From a bacterium (GTDB lineage Bacteria; Patescibacteriota; Minisyncoccia; UBA6257; 02-FULL-45-10c): a DNA stretch of 57,499 nt. Under the pieces are notes generated by a model that saw only the letters and a program-made list of their open reading frames with translations, did no database searches and was not told the origin of the DNA. The stretch lies in NCBI GenBank assembly GCA_030646555.1, contig JAUSKP010000010.1:1-57499 (forward strand), in the 5' to 3' direction. This document shows, one piece after another, positions 3,984-55,621 of this stretch (the first letter of the stretch is position 1; every line of letters begins with the position of its first letter). A program made the position numbers and the translations under genes.

Positions 3984-4013
3984 GTCATTCCTGGCTTGAC
4001 CCGGAATCCAGAT
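3984..4013. repeat. half copy of family B repeat (GTCATTCC...GGAATCCAG)
   Basis: gtcattcctggcttgacccggaatccagatt matches the left half of 53267-53327. Confidence 0.7.
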
Positions 4014-5336: not shown

Positions 5337-6619
5337 TTTATCGAAGATATGCCTCTTATTTTTTTAACAGACTCTACTAAAACTTTCATAGTGTAGTCTA
5401 TGTCTCCTTTTTTAGTATATCGTCCAAGCGTAAAACGAACGCTGCAGTGAGCAAGTTCTAAAGGCAATCCTATGCTTAATAATACATAAGATGGGCTAAG
5501 ATCTAAGGATGAACAGGCTGATCCCGTAGAACAATAAATTCCGTACCTATCTAATAGAAGGAGCAGGGATTCCCCCTCAACTCCTTTTATAGATACATTT
5601 ATATTATTTGGCAGTCGCTGTTTTATGTCTCCGTTTACCAATACCCCATCAATTTCTTTTTGAATCCGTCTCAAAAAATAGTCTCGTAATTTTATTAATC
5701 GCTTGCTTTCTGAAACTCTTTTCTTTTCAGAAATTGAAAGAGCCTCGGAAAAACCTACAATCCCCGCCACATTTTCCGTTCCCGATCTTAATCCCCTTTC
5801 CTGTCCGCCGCCAAATATAATTGGCTCAATCTTAGCTTGTAGTGAGCCCGTCGAACTATATTTTTTATTTAAATAGAGGCACCCGATCCCTTTTGGCCCG
5901 TATATTTTTGAAGAGCTCATCGTGAGAGCATCTGCCCCTAATTCCTTAGCTTTAATTGGCAATGCGCTAGCGGCCTGGCAGGCATCCGTGTGAAATATTG
6001 GGAATAATGAATTGTTATTAAATCTGTCATTGTGAGGCAACCGAAGCAATCTATTTGTTTTCTCAGATTGCCGCGTCGCAGACTCCTCGCAATGACGGAC
6101 AGTTTTAAATTCCTGAATAATTTTAGCGATTTCCTTTATTGGTTGAATAGTTCCAATTTCGTTATTGGCATACATTATAGAAACCAAAATCGTATCCCGC
6201 CTTAAACTCAAACTCAACTTTTCTAAAGAAACCAAACCCTTTTTATCTACATCTAAATAAGTTATTTCAAAGCCTTCTTTTTCCAGTTTCTTGCAGGCAT
6301 CCAATATCGCTTTATGTTCAATACCCGAAACAATTACGTGCTTTCCTTTTTCTTTATAGGCGCGGGCAATGCCGAACATAGCCAAATTGTCGGATTCGGT
6401 TCCCCCGCTGGTAAATATAATTTCTTCCGGCTCCGCGCCAATATGTTTAGCGATATTTTTTCTTGCCGTTTCAATCGCATTCTTGCTTTCTCTGCCAAGA
6501 GCATGCAAAGAAGACGGGTTGCCATACCTTTCTTTAAAATAAGGCAACATTGCCTTTAATACCCTAGGATCAACGGGCGTCGTTGAAGCGTTATCTAAAT
6601 AGACTTGTTTAGATTTCAT
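5333..6619 (-). CDS. iscS: cysteine desulfurase (NifS/IscS class) carrying an in-frame repeat insertion
   Basis: YLDNASTTP, FTSGGTESDN, HTDACQA, SSSKIYGPKG and GSACSS motifs. About 30 extra residues are encoded by repeat 6026-6096. Confidence 0.9.
   Translation of the reverse strand: MKSKQVYLDNASTTPVDPRVLKAMLPYFKERYGNPSSLHALGRESKNAIETARKNIAKHIGAEPEEIIFTSGGTESDNLAMFGIARAYKEKGKHVIVSGIEHKAILDACKKLEKEGFEITYLDVDKKGLVSLEKLSLSLRRDTILVSIMYANNEIGTIQPIKEIAKIIQEFKTVRHCEESATRQSEKTNRLLRLPHNDRFNNNSLFPIFHTDACQAASALPIKAKELGADALTMSSSKIYGPKGIGCLYLNKKYSSTGSLQAKIEPIIFGGGQERGLRSGTENVAGIVGFSEALSISEKKRVSESKRLIKLRDYFLRRIQKEIDGVLVNGDIKQRLPNNINVSIKGVEGESLLLLLDRYGIYCSTGSACSSLDLSPSYVLLSIGLPLELAHCSVRFTLGRYTKKGDIDYTMKVLVESVKKIRGISSIK
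6026..6096. repeat. family A palindromic element (GTCATTG[CT]GAGG ... CCTCGCAATGAC) inside the iscS coding frame
   Basis: Same termini and core (ccgaagcaatct...agattgccgcgtcgcagactcctcgcaatgac) as the intergenic copies at 10499, 11326 and 11976. Confidence 0.85.
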
Positions 6620-9323: not shown

Positions 9324-9410
9324 GTAATTATTCCTCCTTGCGTTTTACGTTCGCAAAAACGAATTAATGTTCTATTTAACATTAAACTATAGAACGATAT
9401 ATTAGTCAAA
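9324..9410 (-). promoter_or_regulatory. conserved promoter/operator/5' leader cassette, copy 1 of 3
   Basis: mRNA sense: TTGACT-17 nt-TTTAAT, then a palindrome GTTCTAT..ATAGAAC over the -10, then leader AATTCGTTTTTGCGAACGTAAAACGCAAGGAGG. Confidence 0.65.
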
Positions 9411-9845: not shown

Positions 9846-9932
9846 ATTTCCTTCCCCCTTTGCGTTTTACGTTCGCAAAAACGAATTAACGATCTGTTTA
9901 GTATTAAACAGTAGAATGATAAGTTAGTCAAA
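9846..9932 (-). promoter_or_regulatory. conserved promoter/operator/5' leader cassette, copy 2 of 3
   Basis: Near-identical to 10229-10316. TTGACT, -10 TTTAAT overlapped by CTGTTTA-ATAC-TAAACAG, and the same GCGAACGTAAAACGCAAA leader. Confidence 0.65.
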
Positions 9933-10228: not shown

Positions 10229-10316
10229 ATTTCCTTCCTCCTTTTGCGTTTTACGTTCGCAAAAACGAATTAACGATCTGTTTAGTATTAAACAGTAGAA
10301 CGATATGTTAGTCAAT
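10229..10316 (-). promoter_or_regulatory. conserved promoter/operator/5' leader cassette, copy 3 of 3
   Basis: TTGACTAACATATCGTTCTACTGTTTAATACTAAACAGATCGTTAATTCGTTTTTGCGAACGTAAAACGCAAAAGGAGG in mRNA sense. Confidence 0.65.
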
Positions 10317-10352
10317 AGCAATATTTTTTAAGAAATAAAACGGGCTGGATTC

Positions 10353-10374
10353 CCCTGCCTGCCGGCAGGCAGGG
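10353..10374. repeat. family P palindrome (CCCTGCCTGCCGGCAGGCAGGG)
   Basis: Perfect palindrome. Copies at 10547, 14195, 21350, 36877 and 39176. Confidence 0.85.
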
Positions 10375-10388
10375 ATCTATCCGTTTTG

Positions 10389-10423
10389 AGATTGCCGCGC
10401 TCCCTCCGGTCGCTCGCAATGAC
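10389..10423. repeat. half copy of family A repeat
   Basis: agattgccgcgc...cgctcgcaatgac equals the right arm of family A. Confidence 0.7.
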
Positions 10424-10498: not shown

Positions 10499-10578
10499 GT
10501 CATTGCGAGTGCCGCCGAAGCAATCTAGATTGCCGCGTCGCAGACTCCTGCCTACCGGCAGGCGGGCCTCGCAATGAC
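10499..10578. repeat. family A element with a nested family P palindrome, in the hrcA 5' UTR
   Basis: gtcattgcgagtgccgccgaagcaatctagattgccgcgtcgcagactc[ctgcctaccggcaggcggg]cctcgcaatgac. Confidence 0.85.
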
Positions 10579-11325: not shown

Positions 11326-11385
11326 GTCATTGCGAGTGCCGCCGAAGCAATCTAGATTGCCACGTCGCAGACTCCTCGCAATGAC
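11326..11385. repeat. family A palindromic element (60 bp)
   Basis: gtcattgcgagtgccgccgaagcaatctagattgccacgtcgcagactcctcgcaatgac. Confidence 0.9.
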
Positions 11386-11975: not shown

Positions 11976-12047
11976 GTCATTGCGAGGCAACCGAAGCAAT
12001 CTATCTAACTTTACTAGATTGCCACGTCGCGGACTCCTCGCAATGAC
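11976..12047. repeat. family A palindromic element
   Basis: gtcattgcgaggcaaccgaagcaatct...agattgccacgtcgcggactcctcgcaatgac. Confidence 0.9.
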
Positions 12048-12088
12048 AGACAAAGAATATAAATTATAAATAATAAATAAAAAAATAT

Positions 12089-14125: not shown

Positions 14126-14188
14126 ACCCTGTTAAATCTTTTGCTGAAAAGCAAAAGAAAATCAAAGATTTTATTTAACAGGGTGCTC
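14126..14188. repeat. family C MITE-like element (ACCCTGTTAAAT ... ATTTAACAGGGTGCTC)
   Basis: Same terminal inverted repeats as those bounding the GIY-YIG ORF at 43336-43625. Opposite orientation. Confidence 0.8.
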
Positions 14189-14194
14189 ATTTTT

Positions 14195-14215
14195 GCCTGC
14201 CTACCGCAGGCAGGC
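14195..14215. repeat. family P palindrome
   Basis: gcctgcctaccgcaggcaggc. Confidence 0.75.
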
Positions 14216-17108: not shown

Positions 17109-17173
17109 TGCCCCCACATGGAACCCCAGCACTACAGCCAAGCTGAGTGCGGGACACGGTCGGACCCATGGTT
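17109..17173 (-). pseudogene. duplicated tRNA-Lys 3' portion (T-arm plus acceptor) with a 36-nt hairpin insert in the T-loop
   Basis: Minus sense: AACCATGGGTCCGA[CCGTGTCCCGCACTCAGCTTGGCTGTAGTGCTGGGG]TTCCATGTGGGGGCA. 18 bp are identical to the tRNA-Lys 3' end. No D or anticodon arm. Confidence 0.7.
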
Positions 17174-21287: not shown

Positions 21288-21329
21288 AATTTAAAAATCA
21301 AAAATCAAAATTTAGGGAAACGAGATTTT

Positions 21330-21408
21330 GTCATTCCGCACTTGATGCGCCTGCCTGCCGGCAGGCAGGGAATCCAGAAACCTAGATTCCCGCTTTCGCG
21401 GGAATGAC
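21330..21408. repeat. family B element (GTCATTCCGCACTTGATGCG ... CGCGGGAATGAC) with a nested family P palindrome
   Basis: gtcattccgcacttgatgcg[cctgcctgccggcaggcaggg]aatccagaaacctagattcccgctttcgcgggaatgac. Confidence 0.85.
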
Positions 21409-22491: not shown

Positions 22492-22803
22492 TTATTTGAT
22501 ACTGGTAATTTCCACTTCTGTCATTTGCTGTCTGTGTCCCTTTTTCTTTCTTCGTCTTGTTTTGGAATGATATTTAAAAACAATCTTTTTCTTGTCTTTG
22601 TAGGTATCCAGCAACTTGCCCTCTACTTTAACACCTTTTAAATATGGGGCGCCAACTTCAACGCTCTCGCCATCAACAACTAATAAAACTTTATCAAAAA
22701 CAACATCGGATCCAACTTCGTTATCTAATTTTTCAATATTCAGTTTGTCTCCAACGGCAACTTTATATTGCTTGCCTCCTGTTTCTATTACTGCTAATTT
22801 CAT
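22492..22803 (-). CDS. rplU: 50S ribosomal protein L21
   Basis: MKLAVIETGGKQYKV... is a typical L21 N-terminus. Basic C-terminus. Confidence 0.93.
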   Translation of the reverse strand: MKLAVIETGGKQYKVAVGDKLNIEKLDNEVGSDVVFDKVLLVVDGESVEVGAPYLKGVKVEGKLLDTYKDKKKIVFKYHSKTRRRKKKGHRQQMTEVEITSIK

Positions 22804-22824
22804 GCCAAATTTGTATTAATTTTA

Positions 22825-22924
22825 GAGCTCATCTTTGTAGCGATAAAATTTATCTACAAATTTGAGCACCCTGTTAAATGCTGCTTCGCAGCAATCCGTC
22901 GACTGACGGATTATTTAACGGGGT
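22825..22924. repeat. family C MITE-like element including the GIY-YIG 3'-end hairpin
   Basis: gagctcatctttgtagcgataaaatttatctacaaatttgagcACCCTGTTAAAT...ATTTAACgGGGT. The left part is near-identical to 55155-55210, downstream of an intact GIY-YIG ORF. Confidence 0.8.
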
Positions 22925-24670: not shown

Positions 24671-24712
24671 GAAGATAGTACTTAGTAATTAGCCACTAGT
24701 AGTAGATTTGCT

Positions 24713-24744
24713 GGATTGCCACGTCGCAGACTCCTCGCAATGAC
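24713..24744. repeat. half copy of family A repeat
   Basis: ggattgccacgtcgcagactcctcgcaatgac. Confidence 0.75.
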
Positions 24745-24784
24745 AGATAATCAATCTCTAATCGCTAGTCGCTAATGACTAATC

Positions 24785-29603: not shown

Positions 29604-29683
29604 ATGAAAATAATTTACAATTTACAATTTTAAATTTTTAAAAATATTACCGAACAATATATAGCGAGGCTGGATTTTCTTTT

Positions 29684-29811
29684 CTGTAGTTAAAAATTAA
29701 CTACAAAATTGAGCACCCTGTTAAATACTGCTTTGCAGTAACCCAGTTAAATAAAATCTTCGATTTTCTTTTGCCAAAAGCAAAAGATTTAATAGGGTTA
29801 TTTAACAGGGT
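29684..29811. repeat. family C MITE-like element / GIY-YIG gene remnant
   Basis: ctgtagttaaaaattaactacaaaattgagcACCCTGTTAAAT ... TATTTAACAGGGT. The reverse strand still encodes ...YLTGCSIL, the GIY-YIG C-terminus. Confidence 0.8.
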
Positions 29812-29857
29812 CCTCGATTTTACATCCAATCGTTTCACTCTTGGGTAAAATCGGGAC

Positions 29858-30092: not shown

Positions 30093-30155
30093 TGGGCATT
30101 ACTGGAACCCCAGCACTACAGCAAAGCTGAGTGCGGGGCGCGGTTGGACCAGTGG
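30093..30155 (-). other. tRNA T-arm/acceptor-like minihelix with a 36-nt hairpin insert in the T-loop
   Basis: Minus sense: CCACTGGTCCAA[CCGCGCCCCGCACTCAGCTTTGCTGTAGTGCTGGGG]TTCCAGTAATGCCCA. The insert is 32/36 identical to the one at 17124-17159. Confidence 0.6.
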
Positions 30156-36412: not shown

Positions 36413-36649
36413 ATGTATTACGTTTATATTTTAAATTGTTCAGATAATCATCCATATACTGGATGCACTAACGATTTAAAAGAAAGACTAAAGCGACATC
36501 GGGATAAACAAGTTCTAGCAACTGCAAATAGACTTCCTATACAGCTAATCACATATATAGCATTTAAGAATAAATACACGGCTTACAATTTTGAAAAATA
36601 TTTAAAATCTGGTTCTGGACGAGCTTTCATAAATAAACATTTAATATAA
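36413..36649 (+). CDS. small GIY-YIG nuclease-family protein (copy 1)
   Basis: MYYVYILNCSDNHPYTGCTNDLKERLKRH... shows the GIY-YIG pattern. The upstream part of the track ORF overlaps tRNA-Trp and repeats, so the start was trimmed. Confidence 0.8.
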   Translation: MYYVYILNCSDNHPYTGCTNDLKERLKRHRDKQVLATANRLPIQLITYIAFKNKYTAYNFEKYLKSGSGRAFINKHLI

Positions 36650-36857: not shown

Positions 36858-36876
36858 ATTTTAAAATTTAATGATT

Positions 36877-36896
36877 CCTGCCTACCGGCAGGCAGG
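36877..36896. repeat. family P palindrome
   Basis: cctgcctaccggcaggcagg. Confidence 0.8.
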
Positions 36897-36960
36897 TAAG
36901 GTTTAATGATTATAAAACAGAAAATCTTTTTTTGCAATAATAACCCCCGCATCACTACTG

Positions 36961-37317: not shown

Positions 37318-37728
37318 TTATTGCTTAGTTTCTTCTCGACCAGAATTAGAATTCTCTCCACCGGAGACAGATCCCTGCCCGTCCGACAAGCGGGCGCCTT
37401 CCGAGGAAAAGATATTGGGACGCGAATCTTTTTCGCTTGGAACTATCGGCTTAAAATCACTAAGTTTCCTGGTTAAAGCGTTGTCAGTTTTCATAACAAC
37501 GATCTTAAACTTCCTTAATATCTTTTCTAATAAATTATCAAACATTAAATCAATTTTCTCAAGTGGCAATTTGGAAAAAAAATTTTCTAAAAAAGATTTC
37601 TTAGTTTGACCCAAAAAAACATTCTCGTCAATTCTGGGAATTGTTCTGGCCACTAAATAAATTATGGCAGCTAAGCTGGCCATAATTAAGAATTGAAGGG
37701 TGAAACTATACATGTCATTTTTGCCCAA
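37318..37728 (-). CDS. single-pass membrane protein of unknown function
   Basis: 136-aa ORF with one N-terminal TM helix. The low-complexity C-terminus partly overlaps the tRNA-Tyr flank, so its real extent is uncertain. Confidence 0.5.
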   Translation of the reverse strand: MGKNDMYSFTLQFLIMASLAAIIYLVARTIPRIDENVFLGQTKKSFLENFFSKLPLEKIDLMFDNLLEKILRKFKIVVMKTDNALTRKLSDFKPIVPSEKDSRPNIFSSEGARLSDGQGSVSGGENSNSGREETKQ

Positions 37729-37750
37729 GAAGGCTAGTTAATTTATTAAC

Positions 37751-37837
37751 GCAGCCTGATTGGCTGCAAAACTGAACACCCTGTTAAATGATGCCCTGCA
37801 TCAATTTTACCATTTCGGTAAAATTATTTAACAGGGT
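37751..37837. repeat. family C MITE-like element
   Basis: gcagcctgattggctgc hairpin, then aaaactgaacACCCTGTTAAAT ... ATTTAACAGGGT. Confidence 0.8.
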
Positions 37838-37896
37838 AAAGGTTTACTATCTAAACTTTGTGCGTCCTTCAGACTTCAAAGTTCAGAGTAAGCCCT

Positions 37897-39142: not shown

Positions 39143-39171
39143 ATTATATACAATAATAATTTAAAAGTCAA
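39143..39171 (-). promoter_or_regulatory. sigma-70-type promoter of rpsB-tsf placed about 10 nt before the ATG
   Basis: TTGACT-17 nt-TATAAT, then ttctatctat, then ATG. Confidence 0.6.
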
Positions 39172-39175
39172 AAAT

Positions 39176-39196
39176 CCCTGCCTGCCGGTAGGCAGG
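39176..39196. repeat. family P palindrome
   Basis: ccctgcctgccggtaggcagg. Confidence 0.8.
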
Positions 39197-39216
39197 AAGG
39201 GTTAAAATTTAGGGGG

Positions 39217-41259: not shown

Positions 41260-43308
41260 CTATCTAAGCTCTGCCCCCACCTTCTCTATTAAAACTTTTA
41301 TAATCTTTTGAAGTTCTTTGTCAACTTCCACATCGGTAAGAGTTTTGTCTTTAGCTTGAAAAACAATCCTGAAAGTCAGGCTTTTCTTTCCGCCGAATTT
41401 TTCATCTTCATAGAAATCCATCAAGTCAACATCGTCCACATGCTCCGGCTCAACGCTTTGAATGATATCTAGAATATCACCCACTCTGATATCACTAGCC
41501 ACCAACATAGAAATATCTCTATCTATAGAAGGAAACTTTGAGATTGGTTCATATTCTTTTTCTTCAACTATAGCTTTGACCAATCTTTCCATATCTAATT
41601 CAAGCACGGCGCCATTTTTAGAGCTTTTCAAAACTCCGATATAGCCCAACACAGAATGGTCGCCCATCTCAATTCTCACGGCGCCATTGTCTTCTAATAA
41701 ATTATTTTTTAAATTCAGATCCGGCATAAACCAATCCACCAAACCCAAATTACTAAATAATCCATCTACAATCCCCTTGAGCTCTAAAAATCCGCCTGCC
41801 CGTCCGACTTGCCCGTCCGAAGCCTTGCGAAGGAGGGAGCCTTGCGAAGGAGGGTCCTTTGCGTAAATGGCAATGCCCAAAACCGGTTTCTCTGATATTT
41901 TAGAAACCCCCTTCTGTTCAGAGGTATCTCCGAATACCCTGCCAATTTCAAAAATTCTAACTTCTTCATAAAATCTCAAGTTATCATTTAAATTCTTTTC
42001 CAGATATGGAGCCAAACTATTTCTTAAATAAGCAAAATCAACGCTTAATGGATTGGCCAAGCTTATTGGCCTTTTTATTCCAAAAACTTCGGCCGGAGCC
42101 AAATCTGTTTTTTCTTTTGATATAAAAGAATAATTATAAACCTCGCTATATCCGGCAGCGCACAAATATTTTCTAATTTTGTCCCTAATAATGACCGAGT
42201 CGTCTTCTGCCCCAATACCCAAAGAGATCTTCGGCGAAACCGCTGGCAATTTATTAAAATTTTTAAACCTTACTATTTCCTCGGCGACGTCTTCAATTAT
42301 CTCAATATCATTTCTGATCGCCGGAGCAGTGATCAAATTCTTTGAAACTTTAAAATCAAGTTTTGATAATATACTGACTACTTCTGATCTTTTTATTTTT
42401 ATGCCTATGATTCTTTCTATCTTGGGCAAATCCAATTTTATCGCTCTCTTCGGCTGTTTTTTTGGATAAACATCCTCGGTCTTATATATTTTGGCTCCGC
42501 AGATTTCCTTAAGAAGGACTAACGCCCTATTCATCCCTAATCCAACCAATTCCGGACTTAAATTATGCGAAAAAGCGATAGAGGCATCAGTTCGGAGATT
42601 AAGTTTTTTTGAATTTTTATAAATACCAACTCCCTCAAAATTAGCTGATTCTACTAATAGCCTATTGGTTTTCAATGAAACCTCGCTATATTTTCCGCCT
42701 TTAATTCCGGCGATAGCTAACGGCCGGTCTTCATCGGCAATCACTAGAGTATCTTCGGAAAGTTTGAATTTATTATTATCTATCGTTTCAATTTCTTCTC
42801 CATTTTTAGCCCTTCTTACTATTATTCCCCCCTTAACTTTATCCGCGTCAAAAGCGTGAAGCGGCTGTCCAATTTCCAACATAACGTAATTCATAATATC
42901 CACCACGTTATTGATAGATCTTAATCCTGAAGTTTCCAGAACATCTTTAAGCCATTCCGGAGAAGGACCAACTTTTACATCGGTCACGTAAGTGGCGCTA
43001 TATCGCGGGCATAAAACTTTTTCTTTGATATTAACTTTAAAAATGCCCTTATCCTTAAAATCAAACTTTGGATTCTTTAGGGTCGGATCAATAAACTCTG
43101 TATCAAAAATAGCCGAAGCTTCCCTAGCGATGCCTAAATGAGATGCCGCGCTGGAAAAACGCCTGGCAATAGAAGTATTCGGAACTTCCAAAATATCCCC
43201 TCCCAAATCAACGGCCTCAAAAGAATACGTATTCAAACCCTCAACCAAATCGGCTTTAGAATATTTTCCCGGCGCAAATTTTTTAATTAAAGAAAAACTA
43301 AATTTCAT
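41260..43308 (-). CDS. pheT: phenylalanine--tRNA ligase beta subunit (short form without the N-terminal tRNA-binding domain) with an in-frame repeat insertion
   Basis: B3/B4, B5, catalytic-like and FDX-ACB domains recognisable. Adjacent to pheS. Confidence 0.92.
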   Translation of the reverse strand: MKFSFSLIKKFAPGKYSKADLVEGLNTYSFEAVDLGGDILEVPNTSIARRFSSAASHLGIAREASAIFDTEFIDPTLKNPKFDFKDKGIFKVNIKEKVLCPRYSATYVTDVKVGPSPEWLKDVLETSGLRSINNVVDIMNYVMLEIGQPLHAFDADKVKGGIIVRRAKNGEEIETIDNNKFKLSEDTLVIADEDRPLAIAGIKGGKYSEVSLKTNRLLVESANFEGVGIYKNSKKLNLRTDASIAFSHNLSPELVGLGMNRALVLLKEICGAKIYKTEDVYPKKQPKRAIKLDLPKIERIIGIKIKRSEVVSILSKLDFKVSKNLITAPAIRNDIEIIEDVAEEIVRFKNFNKLPAVSPKISLGIGAEDDSVIIRDKIRKYLCAAGYSEVYNYSFISKEKTDLAPAEVFGIKRPISLANPLSVDFAYLRNSLAPYLEKNLNDNLRFYEEVRIFEIGRVFGDTSEQKGVSKISEKPVLGIAIYAKDPPSQGSLLRKASDGQVGRAGGFLELKGIVDGLFSNLGLVDWFMPDLNLKNNLLEDNGAVRIEMGDHSVLGYIGVLKSSKNGAVLELDMERLVKAIVEEKEYEPISKFPSIDRDISMLVASDIRVGDILDIIQSVEPEHVDDVDLMDFYEDEKFGGKKSLTFRIVFQAKDKTLTDVEVDKELQKIIKVLIEKVGAELR
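41791..41857. repeat. GC-rich family H repeat in-frame inside pheT
   Basis: tccgcctgcccgtccgacttgcccgtccgaagccttgcgaaggagggagccttgcgaaggaggg, with internal tandem units. Encodes PPSQGSLLRKASDGQVGRAGG. Confidence 0.75.
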
Positions 43309-43324
43309 GCGAGTGTTTAATTTA

Positions 43325-43591
43325 TTAAATCGAGCACCCTGTTAAATAAGATTTGAGGCGACTCTTTATAAACATTTTACCATGATAAGTTTTAAAATAT
43401 TTTTCTCTGTGCATAGCATCTTTTTTGTTTAAACAAGCTTCGGAATAAATTATTTTTAACGGTCTTCTATTTTTTGTCGAAATCACATAACCTTTTCGAT
43501 GTTCCTCAAATCTTAATTTCAAATTTTCGGTATAGCCTGCATAAAATTTATTATCTTTTAGCGATTGCAATATATAAACATAATAAAACAT
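43325..43591 (-). CDS. small GIY-YIG nuclease-family protein (copy 2)
   Basis: MFYYVYILQSLKDNKFYAGYTENLKLRFEEH...NRRPLKIIYSE. 88 aa. Confidence 0.85.
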   Translation of the reverse strand: MFYYVYILQSLKDNKFYAGYTENLKLRFEEHRKGYVISTKNRRPLKIIYSEACLNKKDAMHREKYFKTYHGKMFIKSRLKSYLTGCSI

Positions 43592-43625
43592 ATTCTATGG
43601 AAAATTTGAAATTATTTAACAGGGT
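43336..43625 (-). mobile_element. candidate TIR-bounded GIY-YIG element (290 bp)
   Basis: Perfect 13-bp inverted repeats ACCCTGTTAAATA (43336-43348) and TATTTAACAGGGT (43613-43625) enclose the whole ORF. The same TIRs bound four short ORF-less elements (family C). Confidence 0.6.
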
Positions 43626-43638
43626 AAGAGCTACGCTC

Positions 43639-44715
43639 TTAAAATTGATTTATAAATTTCAAATCCCCGCTATAAAACATTCTTATATCCGGAATATTGT
43701 ATTTAAGCATGGCCACTCTTTCGCAGCCCAAACCAAAAGCAAACCCCTGATATTCCCGAGGATCATATCCTCCAGCTTTTAATACGTTTGGGTGCACCAT
43801 ACCGGCGCCCATAATCTCAAGCCATCCGGATTCTTTGCAAATATTACATCCCTTTCCCCCGCACTTTACGCATTGGATATCAATCTCCAATCCCGGTTCC
43901 ACGAACGGAAAATAACTGGGTCGAAGCCTAACCTCTAATTTTTTCTTAAATAACCTGGTAAAAAATTCTTGAATAATATATTTAAAATTGGTCAGATTTA
44001 CATCCTTGCCGACCATTAAACACTCAATTTGATTAAAATTTATTTCGTGCGAAGCGTCCGTTGCTTCATAGCGAAAAACTCTGCCCGGCACCACTATTTG
44101 AAAAGGCGGCTTGTGGGTCTCCATATACCTTATTTGCATCGGGCTGGTGTGAGTCCTCAGTAATAACTTTTGACCTTTGACCTTTGACCTTTGACTCTCT
44201 GTCAATTGTTTAGTGTCATGTGTCAATTGTTTTTGGTTGTCTTGCAACCAGAATGTATCATGCATTTCCCTTGCCGGATGATTTTTAGGAATATTCAAAG
44301 CGTCAAAATTATAATACTCCGTCTCCACTTCCGGTCCGCCATCAATAATAGAAAAACTCATACTCCTAAAAATATCAATTATCTCATTTTCAATAATTGT
44401 TAACGGGTGCAAATGCCCTATTTTTATTTTCTTACCAGGACGGGTGACATCCAAAGAATTCCTGCTTTTTTTGGACAAAAATTCGTTCTTTTTATTTTCA
44501 ATTAAGACATCCAACTCATTTCTTAGTGATTGAGCCTTTGGCCCGATCACTTTTTTTTCTTCAAGCGAAAGATCGCCCAGTGAACGCAATATCTGATTTA
44601 GCTCTCCTTTTCTGCCTAAATATTTTATTTTTATGTCTTCAAGGGATTTTAAATCAGCGCAATTTTTTATTTCGCCTTCGGCCCTATTTTTAATCTCGTC
44701 TATTTTCTTATTCAT
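43639..44715 (-). CDS. pheS: phenylalanine--tRNA ligase alpha subunit with an in-frame tandem-repeat insertion
   Basis: HPAREMHDTFW, LLRTHTSPMQIR and FGLGCERVAML class II motifs. Confidence 0.93.
   Translation of the reverse strand: MNKKIDEIKNRAEGEIKNCADLKSLEDIKIKYLGRKGELNQILRSLGDLSLEEKKVIGPKAQSLRNELDVLIENKKNEFLSKKSRNSLDVTRPGKKIKIGHLHPLTIIENEIIDIFRSMSFSIIDGGPEVETEYYNFDALNIPKNHPAREMHDTFWLQDNQKQLTHDTKQLTESQRSKVKGQKLLLRTHTSPMQIRYMETHKPPFQIVVPGRVFRYEATDASHEINFNQIECLMVGKDVNLTNFKYIIQEFFTRLFKKKLEVRLRPSYFPFVEPGLEIDIQCVKCGGKGCNICKESGWLEIMGAGMVHPNVLKAGGYDPREYQGFAFGLGCERVAMLKYNIPDIRMFYSGDLKFINQF
44169..44236. repeat. short tandem repeats inside pheS (TGACCTTT x3, GTCAATTGTTT x2)
   Basis: ttttgacctttgacctttgacctttgactctctgtcaattgtttagtgtcatgtgtcaattgttt. 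A related tgac(c/t)ttt run occurs in trmD at 39801-39830. Confidence 0.8.
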
Positions 44716-47854: not shown

Positions 47855-47914
47855 AAATCATAAAACCGGCAACAAAATGCCGGTTTTATGATTTGTGCGC
47901 GGTAGATGGGATTT
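47855..47914. repeat. direct repeat copy A: duplicated tRNA-Asp 3' end plus its terminator hairpin
   Basis: aaatcataaaaccggcaa(caa)aatgccggttttatgatttgtgcgcggtagatgggattt is repeated at 48025-48081, where it is part of the intact tRNA-Asp locus. Confidence 0.85.
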
Positions 47915-48064
47915 CCCTACGGTAAATTTACTGACGTAAATTTCCTCCGGGCCGGCCCTCACAGCGCTCGCCTCGCCTTCAGCGAACTCGCGCTTTGCTC
48001 CGGGCTTCAAATCCCCCTACGTATAAATCATAAAACCGGCAAAATGCCGGTTTTATGATTTGTG

Positions 48065-48139
48065 CGCGGTAGATGGGATTTGAACCCACGGTCTCCTCCG
48101 TGACAGGGAGGCGCATTAGGCCAGCTATGCTACTACCGC
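48065..48139 (-). tRNA. tRNA-Asp (anticodon GTC)
   Basis: GCGGTAG/CTACCGC acceptor, anticodon arm CCTCC-CTGTCAC-GGAGG, T-arm GTGGG-TTCAAAT-CCCAT. A 14-bp-stem terminator follows. Confidence 0.9.
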
Positions 48140-48800: not shown

Positions 48801-48838
48801 AGATTGATTATACCAAGTAATAATTTAAGATTTACTCT

Positions 48839-48900
48839 GTCATTCCGCACTTGATGCGGAATCTAGGTTTTCTGGATTCCGGCTCGTTGGCCGGAATGAC
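48839..48900. repeat. family B element
   Basis: gtcattccgcacttgatgcggaatctaggttttctggattccggctcgttggccggaatgac. Confidence 0.9.
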
Positions 48901-50391: not shown

Positions 50392-50430
50392 ATTTTTATT
50401 TTGTGTTCTTTTGCTATTTTACTTCCCTTT

Positions 50431-50501
50431 GTCATTCCGTACTTGATACGGAATCCAGAATCATGGATCCCCGGGTCTCGCTTCGTTCGCCCGAGGATGA
50501 C
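50431..50501. repeat. family B element
   Basis: gtcattccgtacttgatacggaatccagaatcatggatccccgggtctcgcttcgttcgcccgaggatgac. Confidence 0.85.
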
Positions 50502-50830: not shown

Positions 50831-50854
50831 AGAAGTAATATTACTATAAAATCT

Positions 50855-50946
50855 GTCATTCCGCACTTGATGCGGAATCTAGATCTTCTGGATTCCCGCT
50901 TTCCCTCCTTCGCCGAGGCTTCGGACGGGCAAAGCGCGGGAATGAC
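50855..50946. repeat. family B element with a nested GC-rich insert
   Basis: gtcattccgcacttgatgcggaatctagatcttctggattcccgctt[tccctccttcgccgaggcttcggacgggcaaa]gcgcgggaatgac. Confidence 0.85.
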
Positions 50947-53247: not shown

Positions 53248-53266
53248 TTTTTTATCCTTCTACTCT

Positions 53267-53327
53267 GTCATTCCGGGCTTGACCCGGAATCCAGAAATTC
53301 TGGATCCCGCATCAAGTGCGGGATGAC
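53267..53327. repeat. family B element
   Basis: gtcattccgggcttgacccggaatccagaaattctggatcccgcatcaagtgcgggatgac. Confidence 0.9.
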
Positions 53328-53756: not shown

Positions 53757-53766
53757 ATCTTTTTTT

Positions 53767-53826
53767 GTCATTCCGCACTCGATGCGGAATCTAGGCTCTC
53801 TGGATTCCCGCCTTCGCGGGAATGAC
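53767..53826. repeat. family B element
   Basis: gtcattccgcactcgatgcggaatctaggctctctggattcccgccttcgcgggaatgac. Confidence 0.9.
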
Positions 53827-54512: not shown

Positions 54513-55139
54513 TTAGCGCAACTTAAGATTCAAATTATATTTATAAAAACTGCCCTTAAAATCATAAAAATGGTCCTCTACGAAAAAACTTAATCTGGAT
54601 CCATCCTTGTCATTCCAGGAAACCGTGGAAGTAACTTTTATGTGTTCAAGATTGATATTTTCAATTGCTATAATTCTTTTTATCTTTTGCTTGGTCTCTT
54701 TATAGATATTCAAATCTAAGCCATCCTCATCGTAAGCATAATAACCACTGCCCGTTTCACTAAAAAATAAGGTTCTTTCATCTCCGTTGACAGATTTTAA
54801 TCCTGAATCATTATAATCAATTTCATAATTTCCCGGTGAAACTCCGGCATTCCACGCAACATTCTCGGGTTCAACGAGCATTATATTTTGGTCAATTATA
54901 TTTTTCGCCAGTTCAATTCCCTCGCCAGCCAAATTTACCGCGATATATCTATCCGCGGCAGTCCTATTTAAACCAATGGAACTGGAAGACAAGGCAAAAG
55001 CCCCTAAAAGACCGACGACAATAACAGACATTGCCACCATGGCTTCCACCATTGCCTGCCCAGCATCGAACTTGTTCTGGTGCTGGGCTTGCCCCTTCGA
55101 CAAGCTCAGGACTTCGCCTTTTTTAATTTCGTTATTCAT
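54513..55139 (-). CDS. type IV pilin-like protein
   Basis: AGQAMVEAMVAMSVIVVGLLGAF has G|Q...E at +5 and a hydrophobic helix. The leader contains repeat-derived codons. Confidence 0.65.
   Translation of the reverse strand: MNNEIKKGEVLSLSKGQAQHQNKFDAGQAMVEAMVAMSVIVVGLLGAFALSSSSIGLNRTAADRYIAVNLAGEGIELAKNIIDQNIMLVEPENVAWNAGVSPGNYEIDYNDSGLKSVNGDERTLFFSETGSGYYAYDEDGLDLNIYKETKQKIKRIIAIENINLEHIKVTSTVSWNDKDGSRLSFFVEDHFYDFKGSFYKYNLNLKLR
55059..55118. repeat. family G-like hairpin plus TTCGACAAGCTCAGG-type repeat within leader-peptide codons
   Basis: cccagcatcgaacttgttctggtgctggg and ccccttcgacaagctcaggacttcgcc. The latter motif also occurs in grpE (11466-11482, 11716-11733). Confidence 0.7.
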
Positions 55140-55186
55140 GCCAAGTTTGTATAATTTTTTAAGCTCATTTTTGTAGCGATTAAAAA

Positions 55187-55447
55187 TTATCTACAAACTT
55201 GAGCACCCGCCAAAATTTTATTTAAATAATTCCTGCCCCAACCTGTTTTTAAATACTTTTCTCGTTTCATAGCCATTAATTTATTTTTATGACCTTCAAA
55301 ATATACAAGTTCTAACGGACGTCTATTTTTAGTCGAAATTACCAATCCCTTACCGTGTTCCAATACTCTTCTTTTTATATTATCAGTATAACCGACATAA
55401 AACCCATTGTCTTTTTTACATAATAAAACGTAAGTATAATAAAACAT
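55187..55447 (-). CDS. small GIY-YIG nuclease-family protein (copy 3)
   Basis: MFYYTYVLLCKKDNGFYVGYTDNIKRRVLEH...NRRPLELVYFE. Start trimmed to the ATG at 55445-55447. Confidence 0.8.
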   Translation of the reverse strand: MFYYTYVLLCKKDNGFYVGYTDNIKRRVLEHGKGLVISTKNRRPLELVYFEGHKNKLMAMKREKYLKTGWGRNYLNKILAGAQVCR

Positions 55448-55462
55448 AAAATTTAGGCGGGT
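55205..55462 (-). mobile_element. candidate TIR-bounded GIY-YIG element, second copy with different but again complementary ends
   Basis: ACCCGCCAAAATTT (55205-55218) versus AAATTTAGGCGGGT (55449-55462), 13/14 complementary. Same positions relative to the ORF as in 43336-43625. Confidence 0.55.
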
Positions 55463-55621
55463 TAAAGGTTTTGTACCTGAAATTTGTTTGTTGAAACAAC
55501 TCCAAATTTCAGACAAAACTCTTTATTTAATTATATCAGAAATACAACAAAAAATGCTTTAAAAATAGAAATGGAAACAAAATTTTATTTGTATTATATG
55601 CTATAGTAAAATAAATATTTT

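Follow-up and report, generated by a model that had tools for sequence, protein, structure and literature searches.

A minimal GIY-YIG nuclease gene enclosed by an inverted repeat and its ORF-less short relatives: a candidate family of compact mobile elements in Patescibacteria

Single-domain GIY-YIG nucleases of the Ssn type are about 94 amino acids (aa) long (CDD cd10448), bind a directional hairpin repeat (NTS/SRM) in single-stranded DNA (ssDNA) and cleave next to it (Chenal et al., Nat Commun 2025, PMC11893778). Such repeats lie on both sides of 42% of ssn homologue genes; the authors described the NTS-ssnA-NTS layout as similar to an insertion sequence (IS) and analogous to REP/RAYT systems, and put forward a domestication hypothesis. 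Patescibacteria are absent from the text of their paper (PMC11893778). A further group of minimal GIY-YIG proteins, the UPF0213 type, is regarded as vertically inherited and repair-related (PMC1564403). Here we analyze a 57,499-nucleotide (nt) stretch of DNA, called the window below (assembly GCA_030646555.1, contig JAUSKP010000010.1, forward strand), from a bacterium of the lineage Patescibacteriota, Minisyncoccia, UBA6257, 02-FULL-45-10c. A small GIY-YIG gene between pheS and pheT is enclosed there by an inverted repeat which also bounds short elements that lack the open reading frame (ORF). We propose that this gene belongs to a family of compact selfish elements of Patescibacteria, in which a gene for a nuclease of ~85 aa is placed between the arms of a 13-20 bp inverted repeat, as in the loop of a split hairpin, and ORF-less miniatures occupy intergenic spacers; on balance, we hold this to be probable. 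The window is AT-rich (G+C ~38%), and its EF-Ts is 89-92% identical to proteins of Minisyncoccota and Patescibacteria metagenome-assembled genomes (MAGs).

The inserted segment (43309-43638, minus strand) fills the whole space between the stop codon of pheS (43639-43641; gene 43639-44715) and the start of pheT (43308; gene 41260-43308), where relatives have a spacer of 4-5 nt. It carries an ORF of 88 aa (43325-43591, minus strand) oriented as both neighboring genes. The right arm of the inverted repeat (43336-43348; ACCCTGTTAAATA on the plus strand) lies within the ORF codons Y-L-T-G and overlaps the last codons of the gene (..KSYLTGCSI*). The left arm (43613-43625), 21 nt upstream of the ATG, is the exact reverse complement of ACCCTGTTAAATA, so the perfect 13-bp inverted repeat reported around this ORF in the initial annotation is indeed present. 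The insert overshoots the arms by 13 nt and 27 nt, and sequence conserved among copies reaches past the inverted repeat on both sides. In every copy a conserved non-palindromic GCTCA (or GTTCA, GCTCG) stands beside one arm only, which gives the unit polarity.

This layout recalls the Ssn systems in several respects. The protein is a single GIY-YIG domain of ~90 aa with intact catalytic residues, its gene is bracketed by inverted copies of a hairpin-forming repeat that is also dispersed intergenically, and a conserved non-palindromic flank makes the repeat directional. In contrast to Ssn, each flank is here a half-stem; the two arms pair with one another over the ORF, which places the gene within the hairpin, and one arm overlaps conserved C-terminal codons. 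The arms are unrelated in sequence to the SRM/NTS consensus (GTCATTCC..GGAATC) and are not self-contained hairpins. The protein matches UPF0213 structures and is 35% identical (E 1e-9) to an SRM-flanked homologue of canonical type (L012:448-735; loci of relatives are given L-numbers, L001 etc.), which, unlike the window protein, has no PDB match. Mobility, seen as empty, filled, nested and decayed sites, and docking at start codons are observed here and not reported for Ssn. By analogy, the element might be regarded as a variant of an Ssn-type system, with the gene inside the hairpin, a UPF0213-like protein, mobility that is directly evidenced and a mechanism that we infer. A literature search returned no paper describing it. 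The earlier claim of an unusual new type of mobile element is tempered by the Ssn genes flanked by cognate hairpin repeats that were published in 2025 (PMC11893778).

The arms are far more frequent than chance would allow. With up to two mismatches, the 13-mer ACCCTGTTAAATA occurs 13 times in the window against 2.24 expected, a number reached in 0/100 shuffles. Twelve of the 13 matches form convergent pairs (14126/14172, 22868/22912, 29715/29799, the nested 29741/29786, 37778/37825 and 43336/43613), one pair around the 88-aa ORF and five around ORF-less elements. The same question was asked clade-wide, in a set of 80 loci with related ORFs from species-representative genomes and more from metagenomes. 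For each of 95 non-identical complete ORFs, the 60 nt preceding the start were searched for a gapless inverted-repeat partner in the region around the stop, and three controls were run (upstream sequence shuffled, downstream sequence reversed, upstream window moved by 100 nt). A score of at least 10 was reached by 30.5% of the ORFs as against 1.1-1.2% in the controls, and a score of at least 12 by 21% as against 0-0.2%. Eight or more arm sequences with no relation to each other occur among relatives, every one complementary to its partner, and the arms differ wholly by protein subfamily: ACCCTGTTAAATAA in L001-L009, TCCCGATAGTTCT in L017, ATCCCGTTAGAGCT in L020, TACCCCGTTAGAAATT in L019, CCCAGTAATACAACCGCTT in L024 and L027, CCAGGTAGTGAAAATTCGAT in L025, L041, L052 and L066, and GCCCCTCACCTAAAAAGATT (20/20) in L030.

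Within the window's family, same-residue comparisons give a synonymous difference of 10.6% in the five ORF codons under the arm versus 42.7% in the rest of the ORF; the arm codons are thus conserved although synonymous divergence (dS) is mostly saturated among the members. Further, a Leu (TTA)/Phe (TTC) codon in the right arm covaries with T/G in the upstream arm in 12/12 members. All three Phe members have the compensating G, but they look like one clade, so the covariation may be a single event. Low synonymous divergence together with covariation indicates that the pairing of the arms, or the identity of both arms, is under nucleotide-level selection. The initial annotation had argued from two ORFs that pairing itself is selected and had proposed to look for covariation across the clade; the excess over controls and the subfamily-specific arms bear this out, with inverted repeats present around further copies and covarying with their partners.

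The second GIY-YIG ORF of the window (86 aa, 55187-55447, minus strand) belongs to a different subfamily and is 52% identical to the 88-aa protein. As noted before, it has ends of another sequence that are again complementary to each other: the right arm ACCCGCCAAAATTT (55205-55218) lies inside the 3´ end of the ORF, the left arm ACCCGCCTAAATTT (55449-55462, a minus-strand match) is 1 nt from the ATG, and 13/14 positions pair. On the right this element continues with a module (55140-55204, minus strand) made of a hairpin and a segment predicted, from a computed RNA fold and covariation, to pair with the last ORF codons; the module ends at the ATG of the host gene 54513-55139 and is 86% identical to 22799-22848. 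On the left there is a hairpin module (55463-55528, end approximate, minus strand) homologous to the left flank of the L165 short element. ORF-less copies of this second arm type (ACCCGCC..) were not found within the window. The third ORF (78 aa, 36413-36649, plus strand), of yet another subfamily, adjoins tRNA-Trp; no significant flanking inverted repeat was found around it (score 8), in agreement with the earlier description, and we treat it as a relative outside the repeat-bounded family.

A single GIY-YIG domain (PF01541, E 5e-14) is the only Pfam domain of the 88-aa protein, and Pfam GIY-YIG matches all three paralogues, which lie within 57 kb, with E from 1e-12 to 5e-14. More generally, one locus or genome holds several divergent copies, with separate arms for each. 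The catalytic residues Y6, Y17, R27, H31 and E63 are invariant among the compared homologues. The 88-aa protein is most similar to UPF0213/YazA: its PDB matches are 1zg2 (E 3.8e-6) and 1ywl (E 5.8e-5), of the UPF0213 proteins BH0048 and EF2693, and B. subtilis YazA is 41% identical; the TIGR01453 score is 17.9 bits against a cut-off of 56. An exact-protein look-up gave no record, and phage and plasmid collections gave only distant UPF0213-type matches of 33-41% identity. The ratio of nonsynonymous to synonymous divergence (dN/dS) has a median of 0.147, with a range of 0.03-0.24 given for the 88-aa ORF family; it is 0.031 between the window and L001 (at dS 0.48) and 0.048 between two copies in one MAG. 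These values indicate that the ORF is under purifying selection, and the nuclease is conserved and probably active. Recent horizontal transfer was considered as the reason for high protein identity across lineages and rejected, because dS is saturated between most pairs and the identity thus reflects purifying selection.

Direct evidence for mobility comes from sites that are filled in some genomes and empty in others. The pheS/pheT insert is present in the window and in L001, L082 and L083 (pheS 87%, pheT 93-100% identity). It is absent from L084 (pheS 86%, pheT 90%; TAA-CCAAA-ATG) and L086 (pheS 80%, pheT 95%; TAA-AGAC-ATG), and the site is also empty in L161 and L163. Nearly all relatives at 50-63% identity have a pheS-pheT gap of only 4-12 nt, which makes the empty state ancestral. 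In the 180-nt derivative that L081 (pheS 92%) harbors at this site, the left arm is succeeded by the hairpin ATCCGTCAATTGACGGAT and a piece of the ORF (KLRFE); an internal deletion separates this piece from the 3´ third of the ORF, which is intact and includes the right arm. The hairpin is the one found in the ORF-less element at window 22881-22898. The tsf site (window 37714-37896) is empty in L163 and L164, with a 14-nt spacer. It is filled in L165 and L166 by an element with the same arms, second hairpin and right flank; the first hairpin and the left module differ. The mraZ site (window 29604-29856) has no insert in L163; there, 15 nt separate the MraZ boxes from the ATG. Units are therefore gained and lost at specific sites, and the empty alleles that the initial annotation suggested seeking exist at all three. 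The filled, empty and deleted states of the pheS/pheT site, together with genomic contexts that differ between genomes for members of the window's family, exclude that the genes are single-copy syntenic orthologues of the YhbQ/UPF0213 kind.

In one MAG, two copies (L024 and L027) stand before unrelated genes and are ~94% identical, and their identity starts and stops exactly at the outer arm ends plus ATGA. A direct repeat of variable length, 3-5 nt, that contains ATG is found at the unit ends of such compact subfamilies. The notion that the arms are terminal inverted repeats (TIRs) thus holds for the compact L024/L027 units but not for the window's family, in which inserts overshoot the arms, by 60-100 nt at sites other than pheS/pheT. 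A clean empty site for the compact insertion at the iPGM gene was sought as well and discarded: the only relative found to lack the element, at 86% identity, has a 5´ untranslated region too diverged to judge an ATGA duplication. The protein P0022, one member of the window's GIY-YIG family, is found identical on many contigs, and recent spread was considered; all ten places have the same context and thus give no evidence of recent transposition. Many groundwater samples contain the P0022 element (~1400-1860 in L171; L171-L180), always at the same position immediately upstream of a PrgI/TraC-like/VirB4-like type IV secretion gene set, which may be carried on a conjugative element.

The short elements of the window share the arms of the pheS/pheT unit. 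Four had been counted initially; the arms are as described, but the stretch 29684-29811 holds two nested elements, which makes five in all. The first (14126-14189, plus strand; arm-bounded part 14126-14184) lies downstream of dnaK and consists of the arms, two inner hairpins and GCTCA, with a computed ssDNA fold of -19.9 kcal/mol (z -8.5). The second (22804-22924, minus strand; arm-bounded part 22868-22924) has a right-hand module and reaches the ATG of rplU (22803). The composite insert upstream of mraZ (29604-29856, minus strand) is built of an outer short element with arms 29715-29727 and 29799-29811 (the nested double 29715-29811), which carries the inner element 29741-29798, and of a right-hand hairpin (29684-29714). 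The insert between the tsf stop codon and the ATG of the next gene at 37713 (37714-37896, minus strand) contains a short element with arms 37778-37790 and 37825-37837 (arm-bounded part 37778-37837). The common anatomy is two arms around one or two short GC-rich hairpins of freely variable sequence. Computed as ssDNA, either strand folds into three-way junctions of -18 to -28 kcal/mol (z -6.9 to -9.3). A known structured RNA was considered for the elements and rejected: Rfam gave no match on any element, at the gathering threshold or at E up to 1, and the junctions have no conserved unpaired nucleotides, which makes a ribozyme or riboswitch unlikely.

That these elements belong to the same family as the ORF-bearing units follows from several common parts. 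The 3´ hairpin GCTCA..TTTGTAG..CTACAAA..TGAGC of the second ORF (55163-55204) is kept in two of the short elements (22825-22867 and 29684-29714), and the element 29684-29811 still encodes YLTGCSIL*, both as the initial annotation had it. The left flank 37838-37870 matches the left flank of L003, and the right module 22804-22867 matches 55140-55204, L003, L004 and the P0022 element. The inner hairpin ATCCGTCAGTCGACGGAT of 22804-22924 recurs in the deleted pheS/pheT element of L081, and the hairpin ATCCGTCA(A/G)T(T/C)GACGGAT is present in both window 22881-22898 and the L081 ORF derivative. L081, L009 and L015 are intermediates, ORF-bearing units decaying towards short forms; L009 is a decayed ORF copy, and in L015 a short element is nested inside a truncated ORF element. 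The proposal that the short elements arose by internal deletion is therefore supported by the common flanks and intermediates, but not by the inner hairpins, which are no ORF remnants and are swapped between copies; this implicates recombination or gene conversion among family members. Judged by the parts they have in common, ORF-bearing and ORF-less copies exchange segments. We also observed that an internal ORF sequence AAATTAAGATTTGAGG (43474-43500, KLRFEE) is a near-complement of the 3´ end of the ORF, CCTCAAATCTTATTT (43349-43363, RLKSYL), and that the deletion/insertion breakpoints of L081 and L015 both fall at AAATTAAGATTTGAGG. A separate GC-rich palindrome, CCTGCCTGCCGGCAGGCAGG, has intergenic copies at 10345-10375, 10538-10568, 21341-21371, 36868-36898 and 39168-39198, and one copy (14195-14215) within the right flank of the 14126 short element.

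The elements lie directly 5´ of co-directional host genes. For 27 of 29 repeat-bearing ORFs, a host ORF of the same direction starts no more than 400 nt away; the distance is at most 30 nt in 17 cases and at most 5 nt in 10, the last usually with an ATGA stop/start overlap. Units of the compact subfamilies have a further ATG (as ATGA, TATG or TTATG) immediately before the left arm, and in several cases this ATG is in the reading frame of the nuclease gene; such a unit thus seems to take over the start codon of the host gene and to provide another. The window's family has a different layout, with a left hairpin module ending in AACCTT(T) before the left arm and a right module that spans the distance between the right arm and the host ATG. 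The segment after the right arm (last ORF codons, GCUCAAAUUUGUAG) is predicted in four elements to form a helix with the segment ending at the host AUG, in three covarying sequence variants, which suggests that translation of the host gene may be coupled to that of the nuclease. All copies are co-oriented with local transcription. Wobble-pair asymmetry, as an indicator of pairing at RNA versus DNA level, was inspected by eye only, and the mismatches are too few to decide.

Several other described systems resemble these units in part. REP/REPIN-RAYT systems and the IS200/IS605 family likewise have a nuclease gene between inverted palindromic repeats, many short non-autonomous palindromic derivatives in intergenic positions, no classical target duplication and a likely single-stranded hairpin substrate. 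RAYT and TnpA, however, are HUH/Y1 enzymes with covalent intermediates, whereas here we find a hydrolytic GIY-YIG protein of ~85 aa and no HUH domain; moreover, RAYTs are typically single-copy and domesticated. UPF0213/YhbQ/YazA proteins ("prokaryotic Slx1-like"; PDB 1zg2, 1ywl) are the closest match in sequence and have the same minimal single-domain architecture, but the genes studied here are insertion-polymorphic, multi-copy and enclosed by inverted repeats. Free-standing GIY-YIG homing endonucleases of phages (Seg, I-TevI type) are also selfish genes between conserved host genes, present or absent among relatives. They differ in having C-terminal DNA-binding modules and at least 200 aa (88 aa in total here, with a TIGR01453 score below the cut-off), in lacking flanking inverted repeats and miniature derivatives, and in homing into allelic sites instead of many unrelated ones. 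Finally, miniature inverted-repeat transposable elements (MITEs) with a TIR-bearing parent (IS630/Tc1-derived, Correia) have in common with our short elements the arm-bounded, intergenic and insertion-polymorphic character; our elements lack both a DDE transposase and a fixed target-site duplication, and the inner part consists of variable hairpins, not of parent remnants.

How could such a unit spread? In a model borrowed from Ssn, the arms would pair whenever the DNA is single-stranded, as in replication, transformation or repair. The nuclease would recognize the directional arm stem, with its GCTCA flank on one side only, and nick next to it as Ssn does; host repair or replication might then copy or relocate the unit. 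Short hairpins could be cleaved and repaired from an ORF-bearing copy via the common flanks, a kind of repeat-targeted homing, and conversion in the opposite direction would delete the ORF. Expression of the nuclease would ride on the host operon, through the ATGA stop/start overlap or through the predicted helix that ties the last codons of the nuclease gene to the host start region. No recognized transposase (DDE, HUH, serine or tyrosine recombinase) is encoded; the sole ORF is the GIY-YIG domain. We put forward, tentatively and as possible rather than probable, that the units represent an unclassified class of autonomous mobile element. Its only protein would be a GIY-YIG nuclease of ~85 aa, without DDE, HUH or recombinase functions, encoded in the loop of its own recognition hairpin; it would spread by hairpin-directed ssDNA cleavage and host repair, including homing into ORF-less copies, and would dock at host start codons with coupled translation.

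A number of observations weigh against a family of selfish elements that move in this way. The best matches of the protein are UPF0213/YazA and not canonical Ssn, so the ssDNA specificity of Ssn is carried over as an analogy. GIY-YIG enzymes hydrolyze DNA without a covalent intermediate, and the joining steps must consequently come from the host. About 70% of the homologous ORFs have no detectable flanking repeat. Inserts of the window's family overshoot the arms without target duplication, and the arms are not demonstrably cleavage sites; a target-site duplication, another check proposed in the initial annotation, was not found with any fixed length, and at the sites with empty alleles (pheS/pheT, tsf, mraZ) none is convincing. 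P0022 is always at the same site and gives no evidence of ongoing movement, and statements on two copies in one genome (e.g. L024/L027) concern metagenome bins. All copies are co-oriented with transcription, and a role of the stem in RNA is inseparable from one in DNA.

The last point leads to an alternative in which the mRNA stem around the ORF controls translation, stability or processing and keeps the host genes coupled, and the genes spread independently of the arms, by recombination or by ordinary homing in which an empty site is broken on both strands and then repaired. Such an RNA device would account for the co-orientation of ORF-bearing and ORF-less copies with surrounding genes, for left arms that abut or overlap the start codon in several subfamilies, for the second covarying helix, which joins the last codons of the ORF to the start codon of the host gene, and for the common stop/start overlaps. 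It does not predict that copy boundaries in one MAG coincide with outer arm ends, and ORF-less elements keep their arms with no ORF to regulate; Rfam families do not match. Besides, copies stand before unrelated genes sharing only ATG(A), so allelic, homology-dependent homing cannot explain the multiple sites. We find this alternative rather improbable. A classical cut-and-paste transposon, with the GIY-YIG protein as a transposase binding TIRs in double-stranded DNA and the short elements as MITEs mobilized in trans, is closest to what was first proposed. Compact units that end exactly at the arms with an ATG-containing direct repeat of 3-5 nt (L024/L027, L025, L041, L052, L066, L020, L017) fit this model, and so do the existence of empty and filled sites and the same arms on short derivatives. 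The direct repeat, however, varies in length and always includes the host start codon, which looks like a duplicated or functional ATG and not like the result of a fixed staggered cut. The three window sites for which empty alleles are known show no duplication, inserts of the window's family overshoot the arms by 13-100 nt, and an 85-aa hydrolytic nuclease is without strand-transfer chemistry. To our knowledge, no known bacterial IS family uses a GIY-YIG enzyme, which also counts against this model, and our literature search found none. A transposon of this kind is unlikely in our opinion. What was first suggested, a minimal GIY-YIG nuclease as the basis of an autonomous/non-autonomous pair, thus holds in substance, but the mechanics of a TIR transposon are unsupported in detail.

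Domestication presents a further possibility: a host system of Ssn/NTS type that restricts or shapes recombination of incoming ssDNA, for example in natural transformation, where the observed polymorphism would mark recombination hot spots. Patescibacteria commonly carry competence machinery, which speaks for this view. Strong purifying selection with saturated dS points to long-term retention, and SRM/NTS-like repeats exist in the window and in many related loci. A precedent is given by Ssn and the domestication hypothesis of its authors (PMC11893778). Presence and absence at 80-95% protein identity, decayed copies and nested insertions, by contrast, point to gain-and-loss dynamics; there are several divergent copies per locus or genome, each with its own arms, and placement exactly at host start codons looks like harm-minimizing parasitism. 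We consider a domesticated system very unlikely, and return to the family of selfish elements as our preferred reading.

Some further repeats and insertions deserve description in their own right. A hairpin repeat (T)GTCATTCCGCACTTGATGCGGAATCTAG, closely resembling the NTS/SRM motif (CGTCATTCCCGCG..GCGGGAATCYRG) recognized by Ssn nucleases, has seven copies in the window (3984-4008, 21326-21349, 48835-48858, 50427-50450, 50851-50874, 53263-53286 and 53763-53786), none of which flanks a GIY-YIG ORF there; a canonical SRM-gene-SRM unit is found in L012. A second abundant palindromic family, GTCATTGCGAG...CTCGCAATGAC, often arranged head-to-head (6066-6096, 10390-10423, 10499-10525, 10543-10578, 11326-11385, 11976-12058, 24707-24755), may be another SRM-like family with its own nuclease. 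At the pheS/pheT junction, L085 (2380-2733; pheS 84%) has an unrelated insert of ~350 nt, which contains a small ORF of its own but lacks a GIY-YIG gene, and the spacer downstream of tsf in L161 and L162 contains an unrelated 150 nt; both junctions seem to be general insertion hot spots. GIY-YIG subfamilies without flanking repeats often form tandem arrays of 2-3 co-oriented copies, frequently beside tRNA genes (L070:10004-11039, L075:3256-3785, L030:2985-3665, L051:3430-4039, L063). In L165 (2886-3128) an 80-aa GIY-YIG ORF of another subfamily, missing at this place from the window, L161 and L163, lies upstream of tRNA-Met; before it stand two direct copies of a sequence similar to the 3´ end of a tRNA. 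In L030 (3388-3700) a perfect 20-bp inverted repeat closely surrounds a GIY-YIG ORF directly before a tRNA gene (read by eye as tRNA-Ala), and an 11-nt direct repeat GGGCCAGTAGC, the tRNA 5´ end, is present on both sides, which suggests that the unit inserted into the 5´ end of the tRNA gene and restored that end. In the window, a perfect 42-nt direct repeat (47873-47914 and 48040-48081, 167 nt apart) reaches with its second copy into the 3´ end of tRNA-Asp (48064-48139, minus strand) and resembles the partial tRNA duplications that integration events leave. Two minus-strand tRNA genes, tRNA-Lys and tRNA-Val, are each followed closely by a copy of a 53-nt repeat of 89% identity (17119-17171 and 30103-30155). 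An 85-nt sequence in three copies of 79-92% identity (9325-9409, 9847-9931, 10231-10315), beside small minus-strand ORFs, could represent a leader or promoter that was repeated, or else a duplication of a small cassette.

If our assumptions are true, then a hydrolytic GIY-YIG domain of ~85 residues would be enough for a mobile element and its miniatures, which would be among the smallest autonomous elements and outside the recognized IS families. The empty, filled, decayed and nested sites would provide direct comparative evidence for a mobility that has only been hypothesized in Ssn/NTS-type systems. Each pair of subfamily nuclease and arms would be a candidate sequence-specific ssDNA-cutting reagent, as proposed for Ssn. 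The Ssn/NTS architecture would be extended to the UPF0213-like branch, so far regarded as housekeeping, and such elements would account for part of the density of hairpin repeats and of the strain-level spacer variation in the streamlined genomes of Patescibacteria.

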